DNA of 64,000 nucleotides from the IMG/VR virus record IMGVR_UViG_3300021399_000124; one strand, 5' to 3'. Of the stretch, positions 16,773-59,777 are shown in pieces. The DNA is from an uncultured virus (IMG/VR IMGVR_UViG_3300021399_000124) (lineage: Duplodnaviria; Heunggongvirae; Uroviricota; Caudoviricetes). Within the stretch, counting starts at the first letter, position 1. Every line of letters starts with the position of its first letter. The position numbers were made by a program, and so were the translations under genes. The notes under the pieces were generated by a model. The model did no database searches, was not told where the DNA came from, and saw only the letters and a program-made list of their open reading frames with translations.

Positions 16773-16930
16773 TAGTTGTGGGTAATTTAAAGCCGTGGAA
16801 AGAAATTAATAATAGGTATAGAGTACTTTTTGCGACTGGGATTTGATTGACATTGAATTCAAGCGATTACAAGGATGCGAGATGTGTAATTATAAAAAGG
16901 AGTGTGAATCATGGCAGAAAAGAAAGTTGA
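16757..16930 (+). pseudogene. Inactivated TRD-like module 3
   Basis: Paralog of module 2 (VVGNLKPW...YRVLFATGI*LTLNSSDYKDARCV); ACG at the start position and in-frame TGA at 16844-16846. Confidence 0.65.
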
Positions 16931-17093
16931 AAAACTTGGTAATTTATACGGATTCACCGGTGGATCATATGCAGGAAATGTATATGAAAAACACGGGCTT
17001 TGTCCTACATTAAATACTTCTGGCGGTGGCAATAGACAGGTTATGATTTTTGTAAAGAGGAAGGTAAAGAAAAATGAAAACAGTACATATTAA
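16911..17093 (+). CDS. Stand-alone TRD-like module 4 (60 aa)
   Basis: LGNLY...GNVYEKHGLCPTLNTSGGGNRQVMI; AAAGGAG RBS. Confidence 0.75.
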   Translation: MAEKKVEKLGNLYGFTGGSYAGNVYEKHGLCPTLNTSGGGNRQVMIFVKRKVKKNENSTY

Positions 17094-17514
17094 ACAGGCG
17101 ACAAAAACAGGTTTGATTGAATGCGCAGTTGGTGGAATATTTGATGGCAGTTATCTCAAAAGTAAAACTCGTCGTGGTAGAGTTCAGGGCGGTGGAATGA
17201 TAGCTCCTACTCTTACCGCGAGCAACCATGATATTTATAGAATTATTGATAAGAAAGGAAATGAAAATATGATGAATATGAAAGATTATTACAAGTGTGG
17301 AGAAGATGAAGAACTGGCAATTAGAGCTTTAACTCCGAAGGAGTATTTCAGATTGATGGGATTTGACGATGCAGATATTGATATTTTAATTGAGAATGGA
17401 ATTTCAAATACGCAGCTGTACAAGATGGCAGGAAATTCAATCGTTGTTGATGTGCTTGAATGCTTATATGATTCTCTTGAAAGCGCTGGATTTGACAAAT
17501 TTAGTGGAATGTGA
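17074..17514 (+). CDS. C5-MTase C-terminal part: TRD-like segment plus motifs IX-X
   Basis: RRGRVQ...APTLTA; RALTPKEYFRLMGF (IX); QLYKMAGNSIVV (X). Confidence 0.85.
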   Translation: MKTVHIKQATKTGLIECAVGGIFDGSYLKSKTRRGRVQGGGMIAPTLTASNHDIYRIIDKKGNENMMNMKDYYKCGEDEELAIRALTPKEYFRLMGFDDADIDILIENGISNTQLYKMAGNSIVVDVLECLYDSLESAGFDKFSGM

Positions 17515-19545: not shown

Positions 19546-20532
19546 ATGAATGGCAGAATGGAAAACAGAATTAAAACAGAAAACATTATTAAAGAAACTC
19601 TGAAAACATTGCCTGAATATGCAACAAATTATTATTACAATCTTTCAGTTTCGTTAGAACCAAAAACGTGTCTTGAGTATATTAGAGTTATTAAAAGGAT
19701 GTTAAACTATCTTGACAATAAAGATGTTAAGACTATCTCGGATGTAGATATCGCAAGATTTATGCATGCAATAGAGATTAAAACAAATAATCGGGGAGAA
19801 GTTTCACAAACCAGTTTTTCGTATCGCAAAACAGTTTATTCCACTCTAAACAATTTCTTTTCGTATATGATGAAATCAAAAATGATTGAGTCCAATCCTA
19901 TGGACTGTATTTCAAGACCAAAAAATTCTGATACTGTTACTAGACCACATTTAACTTCTGAAGACTTTAAGAAAATTCTGAACCAGGTTGAACTTGGCGG
20001 AGGATCAAAGCGGGCGACAAGTTATCAGAAAAAATGGAAGACTAGAGATTTCGCTATCTTTATGTTGTTTATGACAACCGGAATGAGAGAAACTGCATTA
20101 ACGGAAATCAATGTTGGAGATGTGGATTTTGAAAAAGGATTTATTACAGTTATAGACAAGAGATATAAAGTTCATGTTTACCATATGAAAGATAAAGTTG
20201 CCAATGCTTTGAGAGCATGGCTTTACGACAGGCAGAGGCTGCTTGGTGATGTAAAATCCGATGCCTTGTTTATCTCTAACCGTAAAGCGAGAATAAACGA
20301 AGACAGTGTAAGCGAAATCGTAAAGAAATACACGAAGGATGCATTAGGATATGCAATCAGTCCTCACAAGATTCGATCGGCATTCTGTACGATTCTTTAT
20401 GAACAGACTGGGGATATTGAATTTGTCCGAGATGCAGTTGGACATAGCAATGTAGCCACAACGCAGCGATATATTGTTAAAGATAATACTGCGAAAGATA
20501 AATCAGCAAGTATTATTGATTCATTGATTTAA
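19546..20532 (+). CDS. Tyrosine recombinase-family protein (SPbeta YopP-like)
   Basis: TGMR, HKIR, GH and RY catalytic residues; N-terminal SAM-like region. Confidence 0.85.
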   Translation: MNGRMENRIKTENIIKETLKTLPEYATNYYYNLSVSLEPKTCLEYIRVIKRMLNYLDNKDVKTISDVDIARFMHAIEIKTNNRGEVSQTSFSYRKTVYSTLNNFFSYMMKSKMIESNPMDCISRPKNSDTVTRPHLTSEDFKKILNQVELGGGSKRATSYQKKWKTRDFAIFMLFMTTGMRETALTEINVGDVDFEKGFITVIDKRYKVHVYHMKDKVANALRAWLYDRQRLLGDVKSDALFISNRKARINEDSVSEIVKKYTKDALGYAISPHKIRSAFCTILYEQTGDIEFVRDAVGHSNVATTQRYIVKDNTAKDKSASIIDSLI

Positions 20533-20548
20533 AAAAGGAGAAAAAAAT

Positions 20549-20790
20549 ATGGGACTTGATATGTATTTATACAGATATCCGAGGTATAAGAATTATAGAC
20601 CAGAAGACATTGATGCCGTACAGGATTATATGGAATATATGAATAATCCAGAGCTACAGGAGAAATACACTGTTAAACAGTAGAAATCGCCGAGGATAAT
20701 TACGGCTGGGAATATGACGGCGAAATCGAGGAACATTATAATCCTATTTTGATGCGTGGATGGGCAGAGTATGAAGAGAGAAGGAGAAAC
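20549..20790 (+). pseudogene. Truncated MGLDMYL-type phage gene remnant
   Basis: Strong RBS, MGLDMYLYRYP... stops after ~44 aa; remaining sequence is coding-like in another frame. Confidence 0.4.
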
Positions 20791-20794
20791 GTAA

Positions 20795-21187
20795 ATGAGT
20801 AATTGGACACATGTGGCTGGAATTATCAGAATTGATTCAATGAGAATATTTGATGAGAATATTGATTTTGACAAGAAAATCGGAAGAGAATGTCTCTGGG
20901 ATGACGATATTGAAGTATGGGATGAAATGGAAAAACATCCTAATAGATTCATGCCGATGGGAAGCGAGGGCAGTCTCCGCAAAGTTGTTTGGGATAATCC
21001 AAACAAAGACAGTGTTGCCGCATATACCGTTTCAATTTTCGGAGATCTTCGAGACCATGATGATCCGGATGAAATTATCAAATGGTTTAAGAAAATTTGT
21101 AAAAAATTTATCGTAAGGAGTGCAGTAATTACTGTAGATAATGAACTTAATGGAAACAGATTTTGGAATTATACTTATGGAGATTGA
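20795..21187 (+). CDS. Hypothetical phage protein
   Basis: RBS; motifs WTHV, PMGSEGSL, FGDLRD. Confidence 0.75.
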   Translation: MSNWTHVAGIIRIDSMRIFDENIDFDKKIGRECLWDDDIEVWDEMEKHPNRFMPMGSEGSLRKVVWDNPNKDSVAAYTVSIFGDLRDHDDPDEIIKWFKKICKKFIVRSAVITVDNELNGNRFWNYTYGD

Positions 21188-21190
21188 GAT

Positions 21191-21391
21191 ATGAGATATT
21201 ATAGCATTCACAGACCGGTAGCACCAGGAACATTTCCGAAAACAGTAAAGGTAAACGAGATTCATAACTGTCCGGCACTGACATATTTTCCAGAGATTGG
21301 AAGAGGAGCATGGGGATGGATCGATTATGCCGGTGAACTTGACGAGAAGGACGCCGATGCTTATGAACTTGTAAAATATGGAGAAAAATAA
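21191..21391 (+). CDS. Small DarA C-terminal-like (polyvalent-protein-associated) domain protein
   Basis: YYS..RP..PGTFPK...AWGWIDY...L......YEL pattern. Confidence 0.5.
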   Translation: MRYYSIHRPVAPGTFPKTVKVNEIHNCPALTYFPEIGRGAWGWIDYAGELDEKDADAYELVKYGEK

Positions 21392-21833
21392 AATGACAGA
21401 CGTTAAAAAAGGTGGTAATATGAATAAAGAGAGACAAATAAAAAATATTCAATGGACGATTAACTTACCCATGTCTTTTCCTGTTGATTGGAGTAATGAA
21501 TTAATAGAATTTCATTTAAATGAATCAAGTTGGTGCTGTGATAATTTGATTGATGATTTATTGAAATATAGTAAAGGACATGGTTGTATATGTTCAATTT
21601 GTAAAGCTAAAGTAAAAAATTCTTAAATATTATAATGAAGGAGAAGAGTGGTTATGAGAAAAGACAAAGAATATTGGTTTGATTTAGGAAACGGAAAGAA
21701 AGCTCGCCTAGAGTTCGAGGTTGACAGGTGGTTTACTTCTTATATTCATGATGGCTTGAGCCAGGATGAGTCTTTTAAAAACGAACTCGATGCATTGCGT
21801 GAGATTCTGTCTCATTGTGAGATTGATGAATAA
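21378..21833 (+). CDS. Two small hypothetical ORFs (21378-21626, 21648-21833)
   Basis: ORF track; RBS-like sequences. Confidence 0.55.
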
Positions 21834-21980
21834 TGAATGTCGGCATCATTGATGCGGATTTTATCGGAAGAGAACGTCATCGCTTCCCCAATTGTGTACA
21901 GCAATGAGATGCTTGGAATTATACGAAAAGGAATATCCTCAGATTGCTGATAAATATTTTTGACTTAAAGTATAATTAAA
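21833..21980 (+). pseudogene. Internally deleted gene remnant (N- and C-termini only)
   Basis: MNVGIIDADFIGRERHRFPN joined out of frame to AMRCLELYEKEYPQIADKYF/DLKY*. Confidence 0.5.
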
Positions 21981-22041
21981 ATTTGGTGATAAATATGAAA
22001 ACATTAATTAAAATTTGGTGATAAATATGAAAACATTAATT
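21975..22041 (+). repeat. 32-bp perfect tandem duplication
   Basis: ATTAAAATTTGGTGATAAATATGAAAACATTA at 21975 and 22007. Confidence 0.9.
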
Positions 22042-22257
22042 GACAAGAGAGATAATCATATTTGGTTTACAGAAGATGAGTTATTAGCTGCAATCAAATA
22101 TTATAAGTATTATGCAAGGGACATGAAGATTCCCAAACTGACAGATGGTCAGAAAGAATTTAACAAGAGAATCACAAAATGTAAGACGCTTTCAGAACTT
22201 GCGAATCTGTACAATCACGAGCATAATAGCCTTGAAATTTTAACGGTAAGACAATGA
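22015..22257 (+). CDS. Hypothetical protein
   Basis: ORF track; GGTG RBS before ATG 22027. Confidence 0.6.
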   Translation: MVINMKTLIDKRDNHIWFTEDELLAAIKYYKYYARDMKIPKLTDGQKEFNKRITKCKTLSELANLYNHEHNSLEILTVRQ

Positions 22258-22277
22258 GATAAAAAACACGAATCATA

Positions 22278-22306
22278 TTGACATAGTTTGTAAAATATAT
22301 TAAAAT
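22278..22306 (+). promoter_or_regulatory. sigmaA-type promoter for the DGQHR/repressor pair
   Basis: TTGACA-17-TAAAAT. Confidence 0.7.
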
Positions 22307-22349
22307 ATCGGTGATAAGATTACATATTCATATGAGGAGGGAAAATAAT

Positions 22350-23564
22350 ATGATCAATAGAGACAAATGCGAAAATCTTATCGTTGATACAATAGAAGCT
22401 AACGCTGGGAAGCGGGCGTTCAGACGTATAATAACCGACACCTTGATGCAGGATCATGGTGTAATGAAGGGAAAGACTCTTCAGTTGATTGGGAATAAAG
22501 AGCATTTAAAAGCAGCCTCAGTCGAGGAATTGTTGTGGCTGTGTGATGCTATTTCTCTTGCCCTAGACGGTTCTGTATCATTTAAAGAATTCTTTACTCC
22601 GAATGAAGTAGGAATGTATCGGAATTCTAAGACAAAGCGTGAGGATGAGTCTGCTTATCCAGTCGTATTTAAGAATGTATTACAAATCAATAATGACCAG
22701 TGGGTAACAACAATAAATATTGATGAATTATATGACTTATATAAAAAACAGCTCATCAATTACAATAAGAATACACAGAGACCTACTCGCAGAAGGGAAG
22801 TTAATGGTCTCGTAGAATATAAAATCAGCGTAAATAAACGTTCTATAAGAGAAATCACGCAGCTGATGAGAGACCATCTGTTCATTCCTAATGCACTGAC
22901 ATTTAATATTAACATTGATAATGTGGAGAATAGCTTCACGTATTCAAATGGAAGGTTGGAACTACTCTCTGGCGTGTTTGATATTATCGATGGATTTCAC
23001 AGATATAAATCGTTGATTGACTGCAAGATAGAAAACCCGGCATTTAACTATAATATGGTGTTGAATATCATGAACTTTACAGAAGAAAAAGCCGGAACAT
23101 ATATCGCCCAGGAAGACAAGAGAAACAAGATTTCAAAGTCCGTGGTCAAGACGATGGACGCCAATAATCCCGTCAACTTTGTCATCCAGAGACTTAATGA
23201 TGATGGCGGATCATATCTGCGGGGCGAGATTGGAAGAACAGGTAATTATTCTGTTAATTCCGCATGGCTATTTGAAGCGATTTCAAAGTGTTATAAGGTA
23301 GATGATAACAGAGATGGCATCGCTCTGGTGCGATATCTGCGAGAGGCTTTTAATGCAGTCATTGAGGATGGAACTTTTGAGAAGACATTCCTTGGCGTGG
23401 CAGTTGTTGTGATTGCCTCCAGCATGTATCGTGAAACTGAGGATATTAATAAGATAAAGACGATTGTTGGGGCAGCCAAATATTTACCTGAAGACATAAA
23501 AAAAGAAACAACAGTCACAAAGAAGCTGATATCGGCAGTAAACAATCTTGAGAGGTGGGGATAA
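22350..23564 (+). CDS. DGQHR/DndB-like (ParB-superfamily) protein, SPbeta YopQ-like
   Basis: YNKNTQR, FIPNALTFN and IIDGFHR motifs; GAGGAGG RBS. Confidence 0.75.
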   Translation: MINRDKCENLIVDTIEANAGKRAFRRIITDTLMQDHGVMKGKTLQLIGNKEHLKAASVEELLWLCDAISLALDGSVSFKEFFTPNEVGMYRNSKTKREDESAYPVVFKNVLQINNDQWVTTINIDELYDLYKKQLINYNKNTQRPTRRREVNGLVEYKISVNKRSIREITQLMRDHLFIPNALTFNINIDNVENSFTYSNGRLELLSGVFDIIDGFHRYKSLIDCKIENPAFNYNMVLNIMNFTEEKAGTYIAQEDKRNKISKSVVKTMDANNPVNFVIQRLNDDGGSYLRGEIGRTGNYSVNSAWLFEAISKCYKVDDNRDGIALVRYLREAFNAVIEDGTFEKTFLGVAVVVIASSMYRETEDINKIKTIVGAAKYLPEDIKKETTVTKKLISAVNNLERWG

Positions 23565-24490
23565 TGTATAACGAAGAAATTAAAAATGAATATTTAGGAC
23601 AGATGCAACTTCAAAATGCAAAGAAAATAGCGTTTAGTATTTTTAATAATAATCTTGGTTATGAAGAATATTTTGGAAAGGATTTTTGTAACTTCACAAA
23701 CCAGGAGATCCTTGAATATTTCACGGCATTGGATTCCGTGGCTTTTGAATCATTAAATACAAAATGTTCTCTGCTCAGAACGTATACTCAGTGGTGTATC
23801 GAGCATAATCTTTCGGCAGATAATATTAATCATTATGACTCTATTACAAGAGAGAATCTGCGAAGTTGTTTAGACAAGACATTATATCAATCCAAGTTTG
23901 TTTCACTTGATGAACTAAAAGAGATATGCAGTCAGTTTATCAATGTCAGCGACCGAGCAGTTTGTTATTGTATTTTCTTTGGTGTTTATGGTAAGAGTGG
24001 CGAAGAGTTAAGAGAATTGACAGCTAGTTGCATTAATACTAATACCGGTCATATTAAACTTCACAATGGGAGAGAACTTGATGTACCTGTTTGGGTGGCT
24101 AAAGAATTATATGACAGCTGCGAGACTTACGAATATACTGTTATTAGAGAAAATGGTGATTTGTTTGATGTTAGACTAAGAGACACAGATCCGACAGTAT
24201 TTAAAGCAAGAGATAATTCCAGTAGTGATTCACTTCATGCATTCTCAAAACGGATTTCAAGGCGTTTAGGTATGCTTGGGAAAGAGTCCGAAAGCGTAAC
24301 CATGACGACAAAGCGTCTCAAGAATTCTGGTATGATTTATAAAATAAAGAAGCTTATGGAAGAAAATGGACTGACTGTCGAGGAAACATACGAAAGGCAA
24401 GAGACAAAAGATATTTTTGCCGAGTACAAATTAAAATATCCAGTAAGTCTTGGATTATTTTTAGAAAGATACGAATCTTTCCTTCGGTAA
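23564..24490 (+). CDS. Degenerate integrase-fold protein, SPbeta YopR/MrpR-like repressor
   Basis: MYNEEIKNEYL start, GKDFCNF, SAM-like N-domain; catalytic R and HxxR absent; coupled to the YopQ-like gene. Confidence 0.7.
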   Translation: MYNEEIKNEYLGQMQLQNAKKIAFSIFNNNLGYEEYFGKDFCNFTNQEILEYFTALDSVAFESLNTKCSLLRTYTQWCIEHNLSADNINHYDSITRENLRSCLDKTLYQSKFVSLDELKEICSQFINVSDRAVCYCIFFGVYGKSGEELRELTASCINTNTGHIKLHNGRELDVPVWVAKELYDSCETYEYTVIRENGDLFDVRLRDTDPTVFKARDNSSSDSLHAFSKRISRRLGMLGKESESVTMTTKRLKNSGMIYKIKKLMEENGLTVEETYERQETKDIFAEYKLKYPVSLGLFLERYESFLR

Positions 24491-24493
24491 ATA

Positions 24494-24520
24494 TAGGCGA
24501 CCGGGCTTGCCCGGTTGTCT
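24494..24520 (+). terminator. Hairpin/terminator after repressor gene
   Basis: AGGCGACCGGG-CTTG-CCCGGTTGTCT stem; weak U-tract. Confidence 0.5.
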
Positions 24521-24549
24521 CATACATCATAAAGAGTAAATAAATATAT

Positions 24550-24578
24550 TTGACAAAATAATCATAAGGAGTTATAAT
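24550..24578 (+). promoter_or_regulatory. sigmaA-type promoter
   Basis: TTGACA-17-TATAAT. Confidence 0.75.
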
Positions 24579-24863
24579 ATATGAAGATGATAATTACTTC
24601 AGACTGTGAAGTTTGCAAGAACGGAATCCTGGAAGAAGAGAATGACAAACCGCTAAAAGTTTATTGTTGTAAACGAGACAAAAGCTATTACTTCGGGCAG
24701 TGCATCCCGTGTGATGACTTCATTTCAAAAACTCATAGAAAGGACTGATGCCTTTGTTCTTGTGGCTAATGTTATTGCCGATAGCAACTGTGGTGGCGAT
24801 AGTGTATATGTTTGCATTCCAGATGTTTGTATCGAGCGGAATCGATGAAACAATAAAAGCTAT

Positions 24864-25253
24864 TTGGAAATGGATAAGGAGTATCTTATGAGTCTTGATA
24901 AAGGAATTAAGCATGGCAAAGAAAAGCGAAAACAATATTATGGATCAAAAGCCATTGATAAATCCTGTCGGAATCATGGTAGTGATGACTGGGCGCTTGC
25001 AAACCGAAAGTATCGGGCTAACCGAGAAGAAGAGAGAACTGCTATTGAATTAAATGAATATAACAAAGGAGAAGATAATATGGGTCTTGTTTTAGCAGAA
25101 TTAAAAGAGAAATTAAAAAAACTTGAAGCACAGCAGTTTTATCATGAAATGAAGGATGGATGGGATAGCGCAGATTTTAGTTATGCCAATAAGCTGGAGG
25201 CAGAGATTGACGAATTAAAGTCATATATCAAGGAGTTGGAGAAAACTAGATGA
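24864..25253 (+). CDS. Hypothetical protein (possibly two in-frame ORFs)
   Basis: HGKEKRK..YGSKAIDKSCRNHG motif; internal RBS plus ATG at 25080. Confidence 0.6.
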   Translation: MEMDKEYLMSLDKGIKHGKEKRKQYYGSKAIDKSCRNHGSDDWALANRKYRANREEERTAIELNEYNKGEDNMGLVLAELKEKLKKLEAQQFYHEMKDGWDSADFSYANKLEAEIDELKSYIKELEKTR

Positions 25254-26005
25254 ATGTGCGGGGCAGGAAATTATTTCAAAGATTAAAGTTAAAACAAGAT
25301 ATGACAACAATCATTCTTCCAAGGATAATTATAGCAAAATGCGGTGATAAAGTAGATGTTTCTAACTATACGGCCAGTGGTACTATATGTGTAAACGCAT
25401 TGACAGAAGATGGTTCTGTAGGAGAGACCATAAAACGAACATTTAATATTAGTAAAAATTCTGATAAATGGTATCTCAACAAAGAAAGAAGCATTCAATT
25501 GCCAAACAAGCATGACAAATACATCATTAAATATGAGGGAACAACGTCTGATGGTTGTCTGCCTGGTAGATTAATATACGAATATAACTATGCTTATTTA
25601 AAAAACAAGCCTTTTAGATGTCCGGCAAATGGATCTTTTATTGGATATAAAATTGCTAGAACATATAGAACATATGAGGAAGATGATAGTGTTTTGCTGA
25701 ATTACGATTTCGTAATTATTAAACTTAAAATACCAGAGGATGCAAAAAGATCTTCTGTGAGTCCTGCATATGGGGCTAAATGCAGATGCGATAAGGCAAA
25801 AGTAATAGATATTTTTGATATTAACAATAAATCTAAAAAATATTGTGAAGCAAGAAGTGGCTATGATTATAATTTTTCATATAAGGTTGGTGAAACAGTG
25901 TCTGTCAATAATTTCTGTGATGATAGGTTTAAAGAATGCGCTCCTGGAATTCACTTTTTCATGAGTTCGTTTGAGGCGATGGCTTACGTGGCTGTAAGGT
26001 GTTAA
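25250..26005 (+). CDS. DUF5758-like domain protein
   Basis: KLKIPEDAKRSS, KCRCDKAKV, YKVGETV, ECAPGIHFF. Confidence 0.7.
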   Translation: MNVRGRKLFQRLKLKQDMTTIILPRIIIAKCGDKVDVSNYTASGTICVNALTEDGSVGETIKRTFNISKNSDKWYLNKERSIQLPNKHDKYIIKYEGTTSDGCLPGRLIYEYNYAYLKNKPFRCPANGSFIGYKIARTYRTYEEDDSVLLNYDFVIIKLKIPEDAKRSSVSPAYGAKCRCDKAKVIDIFDINNKSKKYCEARSGYDYNFSYKVGETVSVNNFCDDRFKECAPGIHFFMSSFEAMAYVAVRC

Positions 26006-26008
26006 AAA

Positions 26009-26683
26009 ATGGAGGTTAAAATAATGGCAACAATTGATTATGGCGCTGTTTTGTTTAAGAACGGAAAGCAGGTTAATCATGAAATGTTTATGGATATGTT
26101 CGACGCTGTTGGTTGGGTCGATGCCCCACGCATAAAGTATCCAGACTGCGACTATCTTGATAAGTGGGGATATTCTGACTGTAGCGATTGCCAAAAAGTG
26201 CATATGAAACAATATCATTCTGAAGAATATGGAGACTTTGAAGAAATCGATACAGATTGCAAAGGCAATGATTTATGGGATTTTAGACCAAAGATTGATA
26301 GAAACTATTATGTTTATGTCGGTGACGAACATTTAACTGTTGCAGCATATAAATATTCGTTTGTTGTATTATGTGATAAGAAGGTGGTCGCCAAGTATTG
26401 GGGAGTAAAAAAATGGGAGGAACAGGCCGGTTTGGAAAGAAGAAGTCGTCACTTCAAGATTGATGATGTAGATTTCTCCGTTAAAGCAATCCTTCCAGAT
26501 CAGGTTCATAAACTATCATTTAGATACAATGGAGATTATTATGACATTGTATATGGTTATTGTATAGATCCGGATATGAAGATTTGGGACGATGCAAAAA
26601 ATCGCTATCTTGGCAAGAGGGGCGCTCGAAAGGTTGATAACCTTTATCGAAGAATTCGGAAATCTAGAAAGTTCTATCATTAA
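26009..26683 (+). CDS. Hypothetical phage protein
   Basis: 224 aa ORF; GGAGG RBS before internal ATG. Confidence 0.7.
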   Translation: MEVKIMATIDYGAVLFKNGKQVNHEMFMDMFDAVGWVDAPRIKYPDCDYLDKWGYSDCSDCQKVHMKQYHSEEYGDFEEIDTDCKGNDLWDFRPKIDRNYYVYVGDEHLTVAAYKYSFVVLCDKKVVAKYWGVKKWEEQAGLERRSRHFKIDDVDFSVKAILPDQVHKLSFRYNGDYYDIVYGYCIDPDMKIWDDAKNRYLGKRGARKVDNLYRRIRKSRKFYH

Positions 26684-26703
26684 TATCTGATGGATGTATA
26701 AAT

Positions 26704-26973
26704 ATGACGGATATATTAATATATTTATTATTTCCGATTGGTTATGTTTTCGGAGTTTATATGTGCGCTATTGCTGAATACCACAGAAGGAGCAAGATTA
26801 CAATCGAACCGCTAAGTAAAAAAGAAATCCGAGAGCAGCTTGAGGACATCCAAAACATTGTAGAAAACGATGTGCATCCTGCCGTATCTCCGGATAATTG
26901 GTACATCTATTCGAATTTGCATGACGAAATCGAACAACTAGAAATACTCTTGAAGCAAAATAATGTGATTTAA
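26704..26973 (+). CDS. Small membrane-anchored hypothetical protein
   Basis: N-terminal TM; its stop lies inside the first cassette repeat. Confidence 0.65.
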   Translation: MTDILIYLLFPIGYVFGVYMCAIAEYHRRSKITIEPLSKKEIREQLEDIQNIVENDVHPAVSPDNWYIYSNLHDEIEQLEILLKQNNVI

Positions 26974-26995
26974 AGGAAACAAGGAGGACGCTAAC

Positions 26996-27124
26996 ATGGA
27001 TATTTGCATTGCGATATCAATTTTAATACCTCTCGCAATGGTGATTGGATGGCTGATTCACATCGCTGTTGTTTGGAAATGGGATTTTAATGCATGGTAT
27101 CATGACTCCGATGACGACATCTGA
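26996..27124 (+). CDS. Cassette ORF: 42-aa membrane peptide
   Basis: AAGGAGG RBS; MDICIAISILIPLAMVIGWLIHIAVVW...; stop abuts the repeat. Confidence 0.6.
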   Translation: MDICIAISILIPLAMVIGWLIHIAVVWKWDFNAWYHDSDDDI

Positions 27125-27148
27125 TTTAAAGAGAACGAGGTAACTGCC

Positions 27149-27367
27149 GTGGATGATAATGAACTTTTTGATCTTGTGCGAAAGAACTATACAGAAGCAA
27201 ACAAGGATTATATCAAAGAGCAAGTGAAAACTGTGCTTAAAGAACCTTCGATGACAAAGCAGGAAGTATTAGACGGTTTGATTGATTGGATAGTTGAAGC
27301 CGGATGCACAGGCATGAATGAGCATTACAGAAAGTTTGTGTTTTCGGCAATTGCTTATCTAACTTAA
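27149..27367 (+). CDS. Cassette ORF: hypothetical protein
   Basis: GAGGT RBS, GTG start; stop inside the repeat. Confidence 0.65.
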   Translation: MDDNELFDLVRKNYTEANKDYIKEQVKTVLKEPSMTKQEVLDGLIDWIVEAGCTGMNEHYRKFVFSAIAYLT

Positions 27368-27377
27368 AGGAGACAGT

Positions 27378-27566
27378 ATGCGTGAAAATAATAAAATTGA
27401 TATGCAGAAGAACCTATATGATATAACTAATCCAAACGAACTAAAAGTATATATTATGTCTATGCTTGAAGAGGTGTCAAAACTCCATCCTAATTATCCA
27501 CTTTATGGCTATGATTATAATGATGGAAAATTGATTTCCGTGCGAAGAACCAATGGAAGGTTATGA
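27378..27566 (+). CDS. Cassette ORF: hypothetical protein
   Basis: RBS supplied by the repeat (AAAGGAG); stop abuts the next repeat. Confidence 0.6.
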   Translation: MRENNKIDMQKNLYDITNPNELKVYIMSMLEEVSKLHPNYPLYGYDYNDGKLISVRRTNGRL

Positions 27567-27580
27567 TTTAAAGGAAACAT

Positions 27581-27661
27581 ATGAAAGAAACACTAACAGA
27601 ATTTTTTATCAAAGTATTTTTAGTGCTATTGATAATAAGCCTTATATACTGGCTAACTTAA
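27581..27661 (+). CDS. Cassette ORF: 26-aa hydrophobic peptide
   Basis: MKETLTEFFIKVFLVLLIISLIYWLT*; fills the inter-repeat interval. Confidence 0.45.
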   Translation: MKETLTEFFIKVFLVLLIISLIYWLT

Positions 27662-27783
27662 AGGGAACATTAACTGAGGAAGTTACGGAAGAATAAGCAG
27701 AGGTGACAGGATGAAAATTATAATCGCAACTCCCAACGGCGATTACATCGTTGAAAACGGAGTAGTAGGCAAGTGGTGACGGG

Positions 27784-27957
27784 ATGAACAAAAGGCCGAG
27801 CAAAGACCATTATCCGAAAGTGGTTAATGGACATTGGTATGTATACGATCCTTGCAAGGGTGGATTCGTAAGCACTGGAATCAAGACTACACATCTTGCA
27901 TATATCCTTGGAATCGTATGCGGAATGGTTCTGCGTGGGTGGATTTCAAGGATGTAG
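27784..27957 (+). CDS. Cassette ORF: 57-aa peptide with C-terminal hydrophobic helix
   Basis: MNKRPSKDHYPKVVNGHWYVYDP...; TAG abuts the repeat. Confidence 0.5.
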   Translation: MNKRPSKDHYPKVVNGHWYVYDPCKGGFVSTGIKTTHLAYILGIVCGMVLRGWISRM

Positions 27958-27982
27958 CGTAAAGGGAACAAAAGGAGGAATT

Positions 27983-28477
27983 ATGAGTCAGATAATTATA
28001 GCACCAAACGAAGACAAGTCGATTTTTCCTGTTTCAGTTTTTCTCGCAGGTGGAATTACGAACTGCGAGAATTGGCAAGAAAAGGTGTTGCGTGAATTGG
28101 AATGCGAAAATATCACGATTTTTAATCCAAGGCGCACATCTTTTAATATAGCGGATAAAAATGCTTCTGTTCAGCAAATTACATGGGAATATAATTGTTT
28201 GGAAAAAATGGATGTATTCAGTATGTATTTTTGCAATGGCGAATCAGACCAACCAATCTGCATGTACGAGTTAGGACGTAATATATTAAGGATGCAAAAT
28301 AGATTCCCTAGTGATTGGGAAAAGCGCATAGTAGTAGGCATTGAATCTGGCTATAAGCGCAAGCAGGATGTCATTGTTCAGATGGATTTATGCGCACCAA
28401 ATTTGTTTATTGAGTCCGATACTACGCCAGAACTACATGCGCAGTACATAAAAAAATGCGTTCGTAAATTTCTATAA
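27983..28477 (+). CDS. Cassette ORF: nucleoside 2-deoxyribosyltransferase-like protein
   Basis: VFLAGGI, WQ, FNPRR, QITWEY, PICMYELG motifs; AAGGAGG RBS. Confidence 0.8.
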   Translation: MSQIIIAPNEDKSIFPVSVFLAGGITNCENWQEKVLRELECENITIFNPRRTSFNIADKNASVQQITWEYNCLEKMDVFSMYFCNGESDQPICMYELGRNILRMQNRFPSDWEKRIVVGIESGYKRKQDVIVQMDLCAPNLFIESDTTPELHAQYIKKCVRKFL

Positions 28478-28492
28478 CAACTTAAAGAGAAC

Positions 28493-28586
28493 GTGCTATC
28501 GTGGCTCAGTGGGACGACACAAAGTCGATGTTGACTGCGATGGTTGATGGACAATCTCGTGCGGTTCGATTCCGCACCGATAGCAC
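28493..28586 (+). ncRNA. tRNA-like RNA filling one whole cassette
   Basis: 9-bp terminal stem GTGCTATCG/CGATAGCAC; T-arm GTGCGG-TTCGATT-CCGCAC; D-arm-like TGGCTCAGTGG; no canonical anticodon arm. Confidence 0.55.
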
Positions 28587-28604
28587 TAACTTAAAGAGAA
28601 CAGA

Positions 28605-28724
28605 ATGCTTAGATTAATTAAAAAAATACAGGTCTGGTTTTGGAATTTAGGCAACTGCAATCCTCCATACGATTGCCCGTTTTGTATGGACTGTTACGAC
28701 AATCCGCAAGACATTAAAGACTAA
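28605..28724 (+). CDS. Cassette ORF: 39-aa Cys-rich peptide
   Basis: ...GNCNPPYDCPFCMDCYD...; stop abuts the repeat. Confidence 0.5.
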   Translation: MLRLIKKIQVWFWNLGNCNPPYDCPFCMDCYDNPQDIKD

Positions 28725-28794
28725 TTTAAAGAGAACAATTCTTTCGAAAAATTTAGTATAATAGGTATATCAAATTGAGAAGGGAGAATGAATT

Positions 28795-29049
28795 ATGGCT
28801 TGCTATTATAAAAGAAGAACAGGCGAATCGCCAGATAATGATATGTGTACACGCCAAATGGCATACGGTGGATGCGTTTCTTGTCTTTATGGTGGTTCGG
28901 TAGAAGTGATAACGCACAGCGATCCTTTGGATGGTTTAGAACAGATGTTTGATCAAGATTCGCCATATGTGTTCTATGATGACAAACACGGTTTCTGTAT
29001 CAATACAGAAGATGCCATCAAACTTTTTAGAGAGTGCTTCTCTAACTAA
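28795..29049 (+). CDS. Hypothetical Cys-containing protein
   Basis: AAGGGAG RBS. Confidence 0.6.
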   Translation: MACYYKRRTGESPDNDMCTRQMAYGGCVSCLYGGSVEVITHSDPLDGLEQMFDQDSPYVFYDDKHGFCINTEDAIKLFRECFSN

Positions 29050-29406
29050 ACAAAAAACAAGATGCGTACAAGAGATTTTCTCCGAAGGAGTTTTGGATGG
29101 ACTACGTAATTATATTTATCATTGGCGTATACATTGGTACAGAAATACAGGCATGGTGGTGTCGAAAAGGTGCTAAAATGTTTGTTGAATGGCAGTTGTT
29201 CAGAAAGGAGTAATCATGAAATTTCTTATTATCACAAAATACGGTTAGTGTCAAATCGAAACAAGTGATTTTGATGATGCTGTAGGACAGACTTATGACA
29301 GCAAATTGTTGGGAAATAGTGCCAGATTAAAACGTGATTTAAATTTGCTACCTTATGACCAAAGAAGGAACAATAAATTATTTATTATAGAAAGGAATTA
29401 AATAAT

Positions 29407-30003
29407 ATGGATGTAGTAAACAATTTTAACAAGATGTTTGGAAAAGTGCAGAATGGAATGTGTAGACTTTCAATGAATGGGGAGATTGCCGTTAAGACAT
29501 CTAGCGGATATAAGACATATAATCCAAAGACAAATCGGCTGACAAATTGCTCCAATTTTGTTTTTGATATTGGAGAGGAATTCTTCTTTGTTGTTCCTAC
29601 AAATCATGTTAAAAATGGAGATATTATTCTGATTGGCGGTAAGCCAAAGTGTGTCATTAATAAAGACACAGAGACAATCACCGTAATTAATTACGAAGAT
29701 GCAACAGTAGAAACCATTCTTCCGGAACGCCATGTATTTCTCGGATCTACATATTTTTATGGTAAGATTGTGAGCATGTTTGGACGCAATATTTTTGGAG
29801 ACAAGAAGGGTACAAATAAAATGCTGACCTACATGATGATGTCTGAAATGATGAAGGGTGGTAATAATGGCGGCAGCAGCATGAATATGGTTCTTCCAAT
29901 GATGATGATGTCCGGCGGTAATATGAATGGTCTTTTCGATGGAATGTTTGAGTTTGACGAAGACGCTGAAGATATTGAAGAAACTGAGAACACGGAGGAA
30001 TAA
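29407..30003 (+). CDS. Hypothetical protein with Met/Gly-rich C-terminus
   Basis: RBS; first gene of the vWA/PurA-like triad. Confidence 0.75.
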   Translation: MDVVNNFNKMFGKVQNGMCRLSMNGEIAVKTSSGYKTYNPKTNRLTNCSNFVFDIGEEFFFVVPTNHVKNGDIILIGGKPKCVINKDTETITVINYEDATVETILPERHVFLGSTYFYGKIVSMFGRNIFGDKKGTNKMLTYMMMSEMMKGGNNGGSSMNMVLPMMMMSGGNMNGLFDGMFEFDEDAEDIEETENTEE

Positions 30004-30005
30004 AT

Positions 30006-30860
30006 ATGGGAAGTGGAAGTTGGACAAGTACGTCTTTTGCTGATTATACTACAACTACAAAAGGAGCGACATTAGATTCTTTTGGTGCAATTGATGCATC
30101 ATTGTCAAACCAGGAGTTATTTAAGGCAAGAAGATTAAATGAGGATTTAAATCCGTACAAAGTAATGAGAGAATGCCGAGACAGTGAAGAGCATCCAAAC
30201 ACAATTCCAATCATTCTTGGACTCGATGTAACAGGATCGATGGGACAAGCTGCGGTTGAGGTTGCAAAGAAGCTTAATGTTATTATGACAGAATTATATG
30301 ATGACATTAAAGATATCGAATTTTCAATCATGGGAATTGGAGATTTGTATTGCGACCATGTGCCAATTCAGATTTCACAGTTTGAGTCAGATATCCGCAT
30401 TGCGGAGCATCTTGACAAAGTATACTTCGAGTTTGGCGGTGGCGGTAATAATTTTGAATCATATACTGTGGCGTGGTATATGGGACTTAGGCATTGCGAT
30501 TTAGATTGTTGGAAACGGAACAAAAAAGGAATTATTATCACAATAGGCGACGAGCGTTGTAATCCTTATCTGGAAAAGAAAAAGATTAACGAGTTCGTAG
30601 GGGATACTGTTCAGGCGGATATTGAAACACCAGAACTCTACAAAGAGGTTGTTGAACATTTTGATGTTTATCATATCAATGTTGAACATGGCAGTAATTG
30701 GGATACATTAAATATTATAAAATCTTGGGAGTTTATGGGTGACCATTTCAGAACCTGTAACTTAGATGATATTTCAAATACAATTATAGACATTATTAAA
30801 ACAGCAAGTGTTGAATCAGAAACAAATTATTCAATGTCAAATAATGAAATTTCTTGGTAA
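30006..30860 (+). CDS. vWA-domain protein
   Basis: MIDAS-like DVTGSM; GGGGNNFESY; ITIGDE. Confidence 0.8.
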   Translation: MGSGSWTSTSFADYTTTTKGATLDSFGAIDASLSNQELFKARRLNEDLNPYKVMRECRDSEEHPNTIPIILGLDVTGSMGQAAVEVAKKLNVIMTELYDDIKDIEFSIMGIGDLYCDHVPIQISQFESDIRIAEHLDKVYFEFGGGGNNFESYTVAWYMGLRHCDLDCWKRNKKGIIITIGDERCNPYLEKKKINEFVGDTVQADIETPELYKEVVEHFDVYHINVEHGSNWDTLNIIKSWEFMGDHFRTCNLDDISNTIIDIIKTASVESETNYSMSNNEISW

Positions 30861-30874
30861 TGAGGGATTAAATA

Positions 30875-32089
30875 TTGTGTCATAACATTAAAGTGATTGT
30901 TGGTGCTAATTATGGAGATGAAGGAAAAGGTCTTGCTACTCATTATTTTTCCCGTTCCAAAGATTCCTGTTTAAATATTTTATACAACGGTGGTGGTCAG
31001 CGTGGCCACACCGTTGACTTTAAAGATGGAACAAAACATGTATTTCATCACTTTGGTTCCGGAACATTTGATGGGGCGAGTACTTTATTTCATGGAGATT
31101 TTATCTTAAATCCTATGGTGTTTTGCCAGGAGTGGAATGAGTTACCGAATCAGATAATTAACAATATAGTTATTTTTGGCGATTTGAGATGTAAATTTGT
31201 TACTCCATATGACATGATGATTAATCAGATTGTAGAGTTGAGCCGTGGGGCTACTCGTCATGGTAGTTGTGGGCATGGCATTTGGGAAACATTTTGTAGA
31301 TATAATAATAACAGAATGGCTTTCTCCATAGCAGATGCTATACATTTAAATAAAAATGAATTTATGAAATATATGTCAGAAATCGCCTTAACGTATGCAC
31401 CATCTAGATTAAAAAATGATTATGGAATTACTACAATTCCGACAGAGTACGAAACTCTTCTGCATGCATACGATTTAGCGGAAAAATATTATGAAGATTT
31501 CCGTTTTATGATTGATAATGTTGTTTGGCTTAATAAAAACGAAATAAAAAGTCTTTATAAAAACTACGATCAGATTATTTTTGAGGGCGGGCAAGGTTTG
31601 GCTCTAGATAAAGATAATATTGCCGAATATCCTCATGTAACTGCTAGTAATACAGGATCATATATCCCAATAAAAGATATTGTAGAATCTGAATTTGATT
31701 TAAATAAAATTGATATCGAAATCGTATATGTGAGCAGGACATATTTTACCAGGCACGGAGAAGGGCTTCTTCCCAGTGAATGTAGAAAAGAGGACATTTC
31801 TTCGCTTATTGAAATTGATATGACAAATCAACAAAATGAGTGGCAAGGATTTATTCGCTATGCTCCGTTTAGTGATAAACAGGTGGCGGAGCGTATAGGA
31901 AAAGATTTAAATTCAGTTAATGAATTAATAAGTACAAATAATTTGCATAAATCTTTATTCTTAACTCATTGTAATGAGTTGCCAAAAAATGGAATAAAAA
32001 TTGGTGAAATTCAAAAATATGTTGATTCCATATATTGTTCAAGTGACAAGAATGCGGAAATTGTTGTGAAGGAAAAGAAATATGACTAA
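30875..32089 (+). CDS. Adenylosuccinate-synthetase-like (PurA-family) protein
   Basis: GANYGDEGKG, GGGQRGHT, HGSCGHG, FEGGQG, TRHG motifs. Confidence 0.8.
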   Translation: MCHNIKVIVGANYGDEGKGLATHYFSRSKDSCLNILYNGGGQRGHTVDFKDGTKHVFHHFGSGTFDGASTLFHGDFILNPMVFCQEWNELPNQIINNIVIFGDLRCKFVTPYDMMINQIVELSRGATRHGSCGHGIWETFCRYNNNRMAFSIADAIHLNKNEFMKYMSEIALTYAPSRLKNDYGITTIPTEYETLLHAYDLAEKYYEDFRFMIDNVVWLNKNEIKSLYKNYDQIIFEGGQGLALDKDNIAEYPHVTASNTGSYIPIKDIVESEFDLNKIDIEIVYVSRTYFTRHGEGLLPSECRKEDISSLIEIDMTNQQNEWQGFIRYAPFSDKQVAERIGKDLNSVNELISTNNLHKSLFLTHCNELPKNGIKIGEIQKYVDSIYCSSDKNAEIVVKEKKYD

Positions 32090-32642: not shown

Positions 32643-32993
32643 ATGATTGAGGTCAAGCGTGGAAACATTGTAATTGCAGATCTGGATGGAGCAACTGGCA
32701 GTGAACAGGGCAAGATGCGTCCTGTCGTTGTAATCCAAAATGACACCGGAAATAAACATAGTCCGACCACGATAATTGTTCCTTTAACTTCTAAAAAGAA
32801 AAAGAAGGGAATGAAAACTCATGTGTTGATTGAGAAGACGGCGGAAAATGGATTGTCTGAAGATTCCATTGCACTATGCGAACAGGTTCGGACGATTGAT
32901 AAAAAGAGAATAAAAATGAGTATTGGTCAAATCAATGACTATATTACAATGCAAAACATCTACAAAGGTTATATTGCAAACTTTGTAGGTTAA
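32643..32993 (+). CDS. PemK/MazF-family endoribonuclease
   Basis: KRGNIVIADL, GSEQGKMRPVVVIQND.GN, EQVRTIDKKR. Confidence 0.9.
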   Translation: MIEVKRGNIVIADLDGATGSEQGKMRPVVVIQNDTGNKHSPTTIIVPLTSKKKKKGMKTHVLIEKTAENGLSEDSIALCEQVRTIDKKRIKMSIGQINDYITMQNIYKGYIANFVG

Positions 32994-54895: not shown

Positions 54896-54968
54896 TGTGA
54901 TATTAGCCTCGATGTGGTATAATACATGCACCACACCGAGGCTTTATACTATAGGAAGGAGTGTCAAG

Positions 54969-56893: not shown

Positions 56894-57895
56894 TTATACA
56901 ATATACTGCTGATATGAATTTTTTATTTTAGAATTATCCACATAAATATATTCCATCGTAGTGTTGATATTGCTATGTCCTAATAATTTTTGAATCTCTT
57001 GTATATCCATGCCACGCCGAGCCATCCCAGATGCAAATGTTCTTCTAAAGCGATGCGGATGCACATTATCTACTCCGGAATCTTTTTCAATAGTCTTTAA
57101 AATACTTCTTATCCCGCCAGGACTTAAAGGTGTATGATTCTTATTATAAAAAAGAGCAACACCTTGTTCTGGTCGAGATAATAAATATTTTTGCAAATGT
57201 GTCTTAGCAACATCGTTTATAAATGTTATTCGTTCTTTTCCACCTTTTCCGTATCTTACATGAACATTCATATCATCAATATCAGATATTCTCATAGAGG
57301 ATAATTCAGAAACTCTAACACCAGATGTAAGTAGAAATTCTACAATAGCACGTTTTTTGTAACTATTACAAGCTGAACGCAACCTATCAATTTCAACCTC
57401 GGAAAATGGTTTTCGTATTTCGTCTTTATATTTGAGTGGTTTAATATTCATACATGGATTTTTCGAAATGATTTCTTCTGTAGTCATCCACTGGAAGAAA
57501 GCGGATAGATTTGCTCTGATATTTTCACATGATCTATCTGATACTCCACGTTCTTTTTCACATGCAAGGTAATATCGTATATCATAAACGCCCATTTCTT
57601 TAAATGATTTACCAATAAAATTAGATAATTTCTCCGCTGTCCGCCTATATTGGTATATAGTATTTTTTGATTTTCCATCTACCATTAAACATGCGCAATA
57701 TCTTTTCATAATACGTTCGTTTTCATTATCGTACACTACGATATCTTTACAATATTCTGTTACTTCATAGTCATTTAATACTCGAATTATTTGAGAAACA
57801 ACAAGCTGCACGGTGCTTGTATCGACCTTTTCAATTAATGAGTTTTCTAGCGACCGAATAAGTTTTTCTTTACAATCTGTAGACATAAAAAACAT
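56894..57895 (-). CDS. Xer-type tyrosine recombinase with N-terminal SAM-like domain
   Basis: SGVRVSE, GKGGKER, HPHRFRRT, LGH, EY; all catalytic residues present; likely start ATG 57886. Confidence 0.9.
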   Translation of the reverse strand: MFFMSTDCKEKLIRSLENSLIEKVDTSTVQLVVSQIIRVLNDYEVTEYCKDIVVYDNENERIMKRYCACLMVDGKSKNTIYQYRRTAEKLSNFIGKSFKEMGVYDIRYYLACEKERGVSDRSCENIRANLSAFFQWMTTEEIISKNPCMNIKPLKYKDEIRKPFSEVEIDRLRSACNSYKKRAIVEFLLTSGVRVSELSSMRISDIDDMNVHVRYGKGGKERITFINDVAKTHLQKYLLSRPEQGVALFYNKNHTPLSPGGIRSILKTIEKDSGVDNVHPHRFRRTFASGMARRGMDIQEIQKLLGHSNINTTMEYIYVDNSKIKNSYQQYIV

Positions 57896-58022: not shown

Positions 58023-58040
58023 TTTAAAGTTCCCTTTAAA
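58023..58040 (-). repeat. Candidate recombination site TTTAAA-GGGAAC-TTTAAA
   Basis: Palindromic arms with 6-bp spacer; directly after the tail-gene stop and upstream of the recombinase promoter; first 12 bp match the array repeat. Confidence 0.7.
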
Positions 58041-59777
58041 TTATATGCTATTTATTTTACTTATGATTTTCCATGCAAGCCGTTCAAACTGTGCTTTGCT
58101 CGGATGCAATTTATCAGAAGTCCATGCGTCAATGTTTATTTTATTAACACCACCGCAATGGAACATATCAAGGACAGGGAATCCGTATATTTCAGCCGTA
58201 GCAATCATGGCGTTTGCAAAATCTTCAAGCGTATGTCCTGTGGTCGGATTTTTCTTGAATCCCCTCGCATCCTCTTCCCATGTGTCTGTATTGGTAGTAG
58301 CCCGCTGCAAAGGTGTGATGAACAGTAATTTGCACCCAGGAAGGTTGGTTGATACTTCTTCGCAAACGTGCCGTAAGGCTCCGTAATACGTGTTTCTGTC
58401 CGTTCCTAAAAGTGTCCCGAGAGAAACGCCACCGTACCAGTCATTTGTTCCTGCCCATACAGTCATGACATCTGCCTCAGTTATGCTGTCTACAAATCCT
58501 GCAATAGCTGTCATGTTCCCACCGCTTTGTGCAGCTTTAAAGTATGACATACCTAACATTTGTGAAGTCATTTCTTGCCAGTATCCCATTTGGGTAAGGC
58601 TGTCACCTATCGTAACAAGGTGCTTGTCGTTCCACTCACCTTTAAGTGCCTTTCTTGGCTCGTTGTATGGAAAGTATTCTGACATACAAGGATGTTCGTT
58701 AGGGACGATCATCACCGTATCTATTTCTGTCGCAAGGAAGGAACACCTGATATAAGTCGCTTCTGAATCTGTTGTCGGGTCTATCGTTATGCTCCTTGCT
58801 TCTACACCTCTCACGAACGTTGTTCCGTCCGCTTTCCATAATGTCCAAGTCGGAACAGTGCTGATGTCCCTATTCATTGCAAAAATTGTATAATCCCCGA
58901 TTGGAATCAGCCCAGTAGAATGCTGATAGTTTGTAAGAACAAAAGCACCGTTTTTGTTGTACATACCTGTTGTTAGTGCCTTTTCTTTATCAAAAAGATT
59001 CAGCGTTGTATGATCTACAAGAAAATCATTTCCAACCGCATCCTCTGCCAATCTTTCAATGGCTGATTCATAGGATTCAGATGTTTCATAAAATGCGCTC
59101 CAACTTCCCACGGTAATCGTTCCGTTGCTTTCTAATGGGCTTGTGTTTGTTACCTTGAGAGATGCTACTAAGTATGTCGATGTAGCATCCTCGTTTATGG
59201 TCACATCAACAGTTACCTCACCGTTTTCCCACGTAGAGCTGTTAATGGTATACCCTGTGCCATTGATTACTATATTAGCACTTACTTTATCTGAAAGATT
59301 TTCACTGACCGCAAACGGACATACCACGCTAATCGTTTTGCCCTTTATTGATGTAAAATCTGCGCCCTGACATCTAACCCCTATATAGGATGTATTGCCA
59401 GTTGATCCAGACGGGATTGTCATTACTCCCGAACTTGTACTTGCTCCGTTTTTGTTATCTGCTACTCTTGCGAAAAGGTTTGAGATTCCGACAGGATCGG
59501 TTTTTCTAATTGATGCGATCTCGTTTAAATCTTCCTTTAAAGAAGATACCTGTCCCCTTACAGCATCACCTGCTGACGGATATGTCACACCATCAGCACC
59601 AACACGAATGTCAATCAGCTCCGCATCACCAGTTGTTGAACCTTCAGAGAGACTTGCAATGTTATCAATTCGTTTTCTCTCTACATCAATCTCTTTTTCT
59701 ATTTTATTTGATCGCTGTCCCCATGCAGCTACGATTTTTCTCAATTGAGACAAAGTAATATAATTTAAAACAGACAT
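58041..59777 (-). CDS. Tail/fibre-associated protein with C-terminal SGNH/GDSL hydrolase
   Basis: N-terminal DAELIDIRVGADGVTYPSAGDAVRGQ; C-terminal GDSLT, AGTND, DKLHP. Confidence 0.8.
   Translation of the reverse strand: MSVLNYITLSQLRKIVAAWGQRSNKIEKEIDVERKRIDNIASLSEGSTTGDAELIDIRVGADGVTYPSAGDAVRGQVSSLKEDLNEIASIRKTDPVGISNLFARVADNKNGASTSSGVMTIPSGSTGNTSYIGVRCQGADFTSIKGKTISVVCPFAVSENLSDKVSANIVINGTGYTINSSTWENGEVTVDVTINEDATSTYLVASLKVTNTSPLESNGTITVGSWSAFYETSESYESAIERLAEDAVGNDFLVDHTTLNLFDKEKALTTGMYNKNGAFVLTNYQHSTGLIPIGDYTIFAMNRDISTVPTWTLWKADGTTFVRGVEARSITIDPTTDSEATYIRCSFLATEIDTVMIVPNEHPCMSEYFPYNEPRKALKGEWNDKHLVTIGDSLTQMGYWQEMTSQMLGMSYFKAAQSGGNMTAIAGFVDSITEADVMTVWAGTNDWYGGVSLGTLLGTDRNTYYGALRHVCEEVSTNLPGCKLLFITPLQRATTNTDTWEEDARGFKKNPTTGHTLEDFANAMIATAEIYGFPVLDMFHCGGVNKINIDAWTSDKLHPSKAQFERLAWKIISKINSI
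59524..59541 (-). repeat. Candidate in-frame recombination site TTTAAA-GGAAGA-TTTAAA (encodes LKEDL)
   Basis: Same arm-6bp-arm architecture and orientation as the 58023 site; lies at the end of the conserved N-terminal segment. Confidence 0.6.

Follow-up and report, generated by a model that had tools for sequence, protein, structure and literature searches.

Co-oriented gene cassettes bounded by short, mostly one-armed sites in a Firmicute phage, and their likely link to a family of Xer-like tyrosine recombinases

The IMG/VR record IMGVR_UViG_3300021399_000124, a 64,000-nt stretch of uncultured virus DNA (the window, analysed here at its full length), is part of a large temperate Firmicute phage whose genes include an MrpR-like gene, three tyrosine recombinases, DnaE, a primase, and NrdD. 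Within 1.8 kb of its + strand (26969-28736), the 12-bp motif YTTAAAGRRRAC occurs in eight exact copies, and a ninth copy, at 27958, carries one mismatch; all nine are co-oriented, as an earlier note on this DNA, made from the letters alone, had reported. That note proposed that a phage recombinase captures or shuffles gene cassettes here, as in an integron. Exact matches in the window number nine, eight in the array and one at 58029-58040 (- strand), against a mean of 0.28 and a maximum of 2 in 100 dinucleotide shuffles of the window. The motif was recognized correctly, its length was not: the conserved stretch takes in four more bases upstream (NTRA) and spans 16 bp, NTRA-YTTAAA-GRRRAC. A window-wide scan with a profile of these 16 bp bears out the predicted enrichment, with scores of 20-26 bits for the nine array copies and the 58044 site, while the best of the remaining window matches reaches 14. 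A full site has a left arm of 10 bp and, past a 6-bp spacer that is usually G-N4-C, a right arm in inverted orientation; the array sites have the left arm and the spacer, and matches to an inverted right arm reach 7/10 at site 5 (27657) and 1-4/10 at the other eight.

The sites divide the + strand into small cassettes of unrelated content. A left-flank gene of 89 aa (26704..26973) ends in Val-Ile-stop codons that spell the arm of site 1 (26965..26980; one-armed), the left end of the array. Cassette 1 carries a 42-aa hydrophobic peptide (26996..27124) with its own Shine-Dalgarno sequence and no Pfam or PHROG match. Past site 2 (27121..27136; one-armed), cassette 2 encodes a 72-aa protein (27149..27367) with no usable family match and a blank in the ESM Atlas, whose stop lies within the arm of site 3 (27359..27374; one-armed); the purine-rich spacer of site 3 is in the Shine-Dalgarno position, with an ATG 3 nt on. 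Cassette 3 (a 62-aa protein, 27378..27566, no family match) is followed by site 4 (27563..27578; one-armed), in which an ATG stands 2 nt past the spacer, cassette 4 (a 26-aa hydrophobic peptide, 27581..27661), and site 5, with its near-complete right arm (27653..27678). Cassette 5 (27711..27957) holds short ORFs of 22 and 57 aa, their coding status uncertain, and site 6 (27954..27969; one-armed) has the single mismatch. Cassette 6 encodes a 164-aa nucleoside 2-deoxyribosyltransferase-like protein (27983..28477; PF15891, E 2.9e-17). Site 7 (28477..28492; one-armed) and site 8 (28586..28601; one-armed, ATG 3 nt past the spacer) enclose cassette 7, a tRNA-like RNA (28493..28586), and cassette 8, a 39-aa Cys-rich peptide (28605..28724), runs to site 9 (28721..28736; one-armed). 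Successive sites are 156, 238, 204, 90, 301, 523, 109, and 135 bp apart, in keeping with the 90-520 bp of the earlier note. The array probably extends to a tenth site (29334..29349), with the 10-bp arm of site 1 and a spacer off consensus: this would be its right end and a remnant of the original target, and would close a probable cassette 9 (28737..29333; 613 bp site to site) with an 84-aa ORF and a 38-aa hydrophobic ORF. The tenth site was defined post hoc, when a breakpoint in a related contig (below) drew attention to 29334-29349; a regex scan then matched it too.

How do these sites relate to the genes between them? At eight of them a stop codon is carried in the site or lies no more than 3 nt before it, as first described, and the remaining site is preceded by the tRNA-like fold. 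Starts follow the spacers at 15, 12, 3, 2, 42, 13, 3, and 58 nt, three of them with an ATG within 2-3 nt. The cargo was said to lack obvious promoters, which a scan at background level supports (12 found, 11.9 expected). The arm is present at just 1 of 214 ORF ends outside the array (ORFs of at least 60 aa), that of the tail gene beside a recombinase; thus, the motif is not a general gene-end signal. Nor is it merely a ribosome-binding site, as the earlier note had also argued: it also occurs in the reading frame of tail genes and on either side of a non-coding RNA. Hairpins of the attC type were not found in 40 DNA folds (10 sites, two windows, two strands), in which no z fell below -1.9 relative to mononucleotide shuffles, and no second box was seen. 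The earlier note had suggested short dif-like sites in place of attC hairpins; the 6-bp spacer is indeed dif-like, but eight of the nine sites lack a second arm.

Evidence that cassettes move comes from contigs of four sequencing runs, compared over positions 24500-31500 of the window. Two of these (X1 and X3) belong to a study that is possibly the source of the window and are not independent; X4 comes from a separate study (P2) and X6 from a third. One X4 contig shares the left flank, including the left-flank gene, up to 26975 in site 1, continues with 147 other letters, joins 28591-28732 (the Cys-rich cassette 8, from site 8 to site 9), and then passes to 27966 in site 6 and the deoxyribosyltransferase cassette. 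A second X4 contig, of equal depth, follows the deoxyribosyltransferase gene to 28487 in site 7 and, after 364 other letters, returns to window sequence at 29349. Each of the six ends of these three junctions falls inside a 16-bp site: five in sites that had been listed beforehand, the sixth defining the post-hoc tenth. The sites cover about 6% of the region, and five ends would land in them by chance about once in a million, if independent. Cassettes 1-5, cassette 7, and the 613-bp unit of the window are absent from X4, which has two inserts without a match and carries cassettes 8 and 6 in swapped order. The joint from 28732 to 27966, in a contig continuous with the left flank, is the junction expected from excising 27964-28730 as a circle, and re-entry of such a circle through another site would give the permutation seen; sites 6 and 9, which flank this segment, both lack a right arm. 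Loss, gain, and permutation of genes at the sites are thus shown in one relative, and the shuffling half of the original proposal holds, with breakpoints inside the sites; capture is a step we infer. In X6, a 240-bp contig (27560-27799) spans sites 4 and 5 in window order.

A public contig, L307, matches window positions 26852-28736 identically and ends on the last base of site 9. It is probably not independent and was not counted; its end could mark a branch between variants.

Which enzyme would act on these sites? The exact copy outside the array belongs to a two-armed terminal site (58023..58044, - strand) at the stop of a tail gene, just upstream of the promoter of a 333-aa Xer-like tyrosine recombinase (56894..57895, - strand), the candidate enzyme; the two-armed site that the earlier note had placed beside this gene is found at 58023-58040. 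The protein has no arm-binding domain and is intact, as had been stated, its catalytic residues being invariant in 51 homologs. Of the models and solved structures searched, archaeal XerA is the closest to it, and the family profile aligns colinearly with archaeal XerA 4a8e, with no integron-type insertion. With the XerC and XerD models it scores below cut-off, and with the integron integrase model TIGR02249 it reaches 77.7 bits, the cut-off being 265. Among genome bins, those with its closest relatives are of ruminant Lachnospiraceae and Clostridiales.

The arm goes with this family. A profile trained solely on the nine array arms was applied to 74 recombinase loci, left after duplicates and loci with <450 bp upstream had been dropped. 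An arm (score of at least 10, within 600 bp upstream of the recombinase) was found at 21 of the 36 loci whose recombinase is at least 50% identical, at one of 16 in the 40-50% range, and at none of 22 under 40%; a downstream control, for which three loci were too short, gave no matches. Matches on the reverse strand (10/36) reflect the palindromic site. Of the 21 upstream sites, 20 have G as the first spacer base and 14 have C as the last, while the middle varies, and a TTWAA-like right arm comes after most of them. Upstream of the two other recombinases of the window and of its MrpR-like gene no arm was found (best scores 8.4, 5.0, and 5.7), so the proposed link is borne out among relatives of the 56894-57895 protein and does not extend to the other recombinase genes. 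A match at 21960, before the 22311 gene, overlaps promoter-like sequence and comes without a spacer. An earlier enrichment (47 versus 12, 9, and 5) was set aside because its profile had been partly trained on the same sites, and the result of the array-only profile is used instead. Weak sites with other spacers may escape such array-trained scans.

The commonest setting of the site is not an array at all, but the exchange of tail-gene modules, in which direct sites surround a variable C-terminal module next to the recombinase. In the window, a tail-associated gene with an SGNH/GDSL domain (58041..59777, - strand) contains a two-armed in-frame site (about 59524..59545, - strand), read as S-L-K-E-D-L; this site and the terminal one at 58023-58044, in direct orientation, bracket the GDSL-containing C-terminal part. 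In-frame sites inside the tail genes of relatives read D-L-K-E-D-L or close variants and are repeated at the gene end, and a site inside the gene together with a direct one past its 3' end is also present at L001, L073, L096, L099, L125, L317, and L318. Inverted sites with a consensus spacer were not found between the tail gene and the recombinase, and no spare tail tips are stored in the window. Parts on the N-terminal side of in-frame sites are similar in 32 of 528 pairs versus 9 on the C-terminal side, a weak comparison that includes about 12 non-tail rows.

Small cassettes also occur at tail loci. At L041, three short units follow the tail gene, the full site coming last; at L037, one mini-cassette does. 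At L099, a 56-aa gene with an ATG directly past the spacer stands ahead of the full site and the recombinase, and at L309 a full site is followed by two one-armed sites around genes of 85 and 40 aa. The 18-kb record of L041 (91% complete) has no recombinase gene, which suggests supply in trans or loss; a recombinase is encoded in 3 of the 13 site-bearing records searched, although some of these 13 matches are probably chance. The pattern of two sites was met in no viral contig and in 14 metagenome contigs: L307 (the DNA of the window itself), two true arrays (L309 and L304, the latter the same contig as L041), and 11 others that, read by eye, look like CRISPR-type, pentapeptide, or tandem repeats, or like chance. 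The 45 single-site matches in viral contigs were mostly chance too. Close relatives of the array were not found in viral contigs through the 219-aa upstream gene or cassette 2, and 80 loci of the right-flank gene (63-73% identical) have background arm matches only (seven loose clusters, random spacers). Separately, a unit between sites at L041 (3320-3460, - strand) looks non-coding and GC-rich and is possibly an RNA cassette.

Taken together, these data make it likely that the repeats are recombination sites of the phage Xer-like tyrosine recombinase family, at which cassettes are lost, gained, and permuted. The cassette system is real and probably active, and the 56894-57895 protein is its presumed catalyst. 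In the proposed mechanism, the enzyme would accept partners that have the left arm and spacer only, tolerating both a missing arm and a mismatched spacer centre; small DNA pieces ending in a left arm would leave as circles and enter at any such site, with the recombinase acting in trans. The array may have grown where the final codons of a resident gene happened to spell an arm, a start that fits a tenth site with the arm of site 1 and a spacer off consensus. The site may double as a translation joint: the arm gives stop codons in two frames and the purine-rich spacer lies at the Shine-Dalgarno position, a geometry through which promoterless cargo would be read as part of the surrounding operon. 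The first capture of an ordinary phage gene would most likely have been a rare recombination at look-alike sites, followed by selection.

Several observations weigh against this interpretation. Standard Xer/Cre chemistry requires a right arm, and eight of nine sites are without one. Some 28 kb separate the array from the recombinase, which is encoded on the other strand, and 15 of the 36 close recombinases have no arm at the threshold. The rearrangement is seen in one relative only, whose two contigs are unjoined (a 7-bp gap inside cassette 6) and whose 147- and 364-bp inserts are known by length only; the 147-bp insert, about 153 bp site to site, is near cassette 1 in size (156 bp) and may thus be a diverged allele. 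Outside the array, X4 replaces 673 bp (between 25237 and 25911) with 394 other letters, with no site in the arm scan; this change at 25238-25910 is ordinary mosaicism next to the array. Free circles were not seen among the run contigs, the cargo genes were not found as cassettes in other DNA, and there was no other stand-alone long array in 95 records or at the 80 loci of the right-flank gene. Finally, L037, L041, and L309 were fetched by the motif itself and thus speak for the existence of small cassettes and not for their frequency; only L099 is unbiased.

If most sites lack an arm and the enzyme is distant, is a dedicated recombinase needed? The recombinase could have placed the sites in a single past episode, or they could be a block copy of an array next to a tail gene, with present-day shuffling left to the general recombination proteins of the phage, acting through short homology between the 12-16-bp repeats. 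The window does encode an AAA_24 ATPase beside SSB, which we take to resemble the Sak4 annealases. In T4-type phages, shuffling of cassettes bounded by PeSL elements, with mini-circles, needs no dedicated recombinase, in the part of that report drawn on here (PMC2839356). This explanation is unlikely: identity between sites is just 10-16 bp with a variable centre, new cassettes would still require a source that carries sites, one-armed sites recur beside full sites in other phages, and the spacer ends are more conserved than the middle, as suits strand exchange at fixed positions.

A purely regulatory role of the motif, whether as operator for the MrpR-like repressor (23555-24490) or as a signal coupling stop codon and Shine-Dalgarno sequence, is highly improbable. 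The MrpR-like gene (PF22822) is in the window, MrpR binds a 15-bp repeated element in SPbeta (PMC10516654, in part), and the motif holds stop codons, with the close ATGs at three sites. However, MrpR peaks lie in the promoters of ten genes in the same partial source (PMC10516654), and here the repeat was not found in the promoters of many phage genes, the trait of MrpR and its SPBRE element: the 16-bp profile exceeds 20 only in the array and at 58044, so that the motif is limited to the array and to the locus of the tail gene and recombinase. It goes with the 56894 family and not with MrpR, is read in frame within tail genes, surrounds a non-coding RNA, and is where the X4 breakpoints map. Equally remote is the case for targets of another enzyme (the Xer system of the host, the recombinase at 19546-20532, or a related enzyme that another phage provides in trans): a 6-bp spacer with inverted arms is dif-like (PMC12907356, in part), the window has two further tyrosine recombinases, and record G017 (91% complete) has an array and no recombinase, making action in trans plausible, but the arm has its fixed place ahead of 56894-family genes and is missing ahead of the other recombinases, and three ruminant Lachnospiraceae-type genome bins contain no long array (at most two exact matches each). 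A close family member provided in trans would accord with recombination by the 56894-57895 family.

Read as sites of that family, the array shares features with several known systems, each compared here with part of a published account. In the Rin shufflon of Bifidobacterium prophages, stored C-terminal variants are inverted through inverted sites (PMC6109161). There too, an armless Xer-like recombinase adjoins a receptor-binding gene, the site is short and asymmetric, and two direct sites lie one in the gene and one just past its 3' end (PMC6109161); unlike in the shufflon, array sites here are only direct, no tail tips are stored, and the site, which has another sequence, also bounds small non-tail cassettes, among them those of a nine-cassette array far from the enzyme. 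Integrons (in part after PMC8138268) likewise have co-oriented, mostly promoterless, tightly trimmed single-gene cassettes and a simple tyrosine recombinase, and their cassettes are lost, gained, and reordered at a repeated site, here in one relative. By contrast, the phage has no IntI, no attC hairpins, and a 16-bp site; its array is detached, about 28 kb from the enzyme on the other strand, with no attI or cassette promoter at its head, and cassettes that do adjoin a recombinase sit upstream of it, co-oriented.

The pdif modules of Acinetobacter likewise consist of genes between dif-like sites whose central region is 6 bp long, but a pdif site has 28 bp and two 11-bp arms for host XerC and XerD (PMC12907356), whereas most sites here have one arm, for a single phage protein. 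The rAID-1 arrays of Bacteroidales combine a XerD-family recombinase, co-directional gene arrays, and repeated intergenic motifs (10.1101/471110); they are set apart, going by their description, as immunity genes in bacterial genomes downstream of the recombinase (10.1101/471110), in contrast to the upstream or detached arrays of the phage. The PeSL cassettes of T4-type phages resemble the array described here in having short repeats between non-essential genes, module shuffling, and mini-circles, but PeSLs are promoter-terminator elements (PMC2839356); here there is no promoter or hairpin, and the site is tied to one recombinase family.

In the literature searched (subscription journals mostly outside its scope, figures and supplements not covered), no account of the site or of the recombinase family was found. 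As a variant of tyrosine-recombinase shuffling, the system has a fair chance of being a distinct gene-capture device. A bolder and tentative extension, somewhat less probable than not in our judgement, is a hairpin-free, integron-like system of gene capture in phages of ruminant-gut Lachnospiraceae: one Xer-like enzyme would recombine one-armed 16-bp sites, capture ordinary genes and RNAs trimmed to their ends, and act in trans. Tail modules and small accessory genes would then make up a pool of cassettes shared by large SPbeta-like, mid-sized, and 18-kb phages, from which new arrays could be seeded at chance look-alike sites. Clusters of orphan genes in phages are usually ascribed to illegitimate recombination. 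The origin of these clusters of tiny genes is an open question, to which a defined 16-bp site and a named enzyme offer a testable route. If one-armed sites recombine, they would provide, beside attC hairpins, a second way for a tyrosine recombinase to relax its site specificity, and would link receptor-binding variation and accessory-gene capture in one device. Tools that seek attC hairpins would miss such arrays, and a site that supplies a stop codon and a ribosome-binding site could serve operon building.

The cargo gives hints of where cassettes come from. Homologs of the deoxyribosyltransferase-like protein (163-183 aa) are ordinary operon genes without sites, and none of 32 loci has an arm at either end of the gene (one partial locus of 33 was excluded); thus, cassette 6 probably derives from a site-free gene. 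The tRNA-like RNA fits exactly between two sites, its fold starting on the first base past site 7 and ending on the first base of site 8. It has a 9-bp acceptor stem and a T-arm, with no clear anticodon arm and a fold z of -1.98. The fold next to the site is as the earlier note described, but a genuine tRNA it is not by the measures used: the RNA is missed by ARAGORN and at Rfam gathering scores (best match tRNA-Sec, E 2.4), and the search listed no other carriers. It is possibly a decoy or a relic, and its exact fit prompts the speculation that capture may proceed by an RNA-derived route.

The left-flank gene allows two origins for the array: either it began at a chance arm in a resident gene or the left-flank family is itself a cassette. 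Among homologs, 31 of 39 end in Val-Ile (VI), as does the site 1 arm. A search of 80 records and of cultured phages did not recover the family, and two members of its protein cluster, P0167 and P0170, are unrelated proteins. The product of 26704-26973 resembles a fusion of a hydrophobic N-terminus to a widespread 56-aa protein, and the differing N-terminal extensions of the homologs join at the same point.

Elsewhere in the window, Pfam matches at 19546-24490 place an Xer-like recombinase, a 417-aa gene, and the MrpR-like gene in a row, a layout that presumably corresponds to the SPbeta repression module. A DNA methyltransferase-like coding sequence (15771-17514) appears by eye to be split over at least two ORFs, and a PemK/MazF-like toxin gene lies at 32643-32993. 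Just downstream of the arm-bearing integrase (54897-56192), a tRNA-like 3' half picked out by eye (56285-56330) looks like the phage attachment site for a host tRNA gene.

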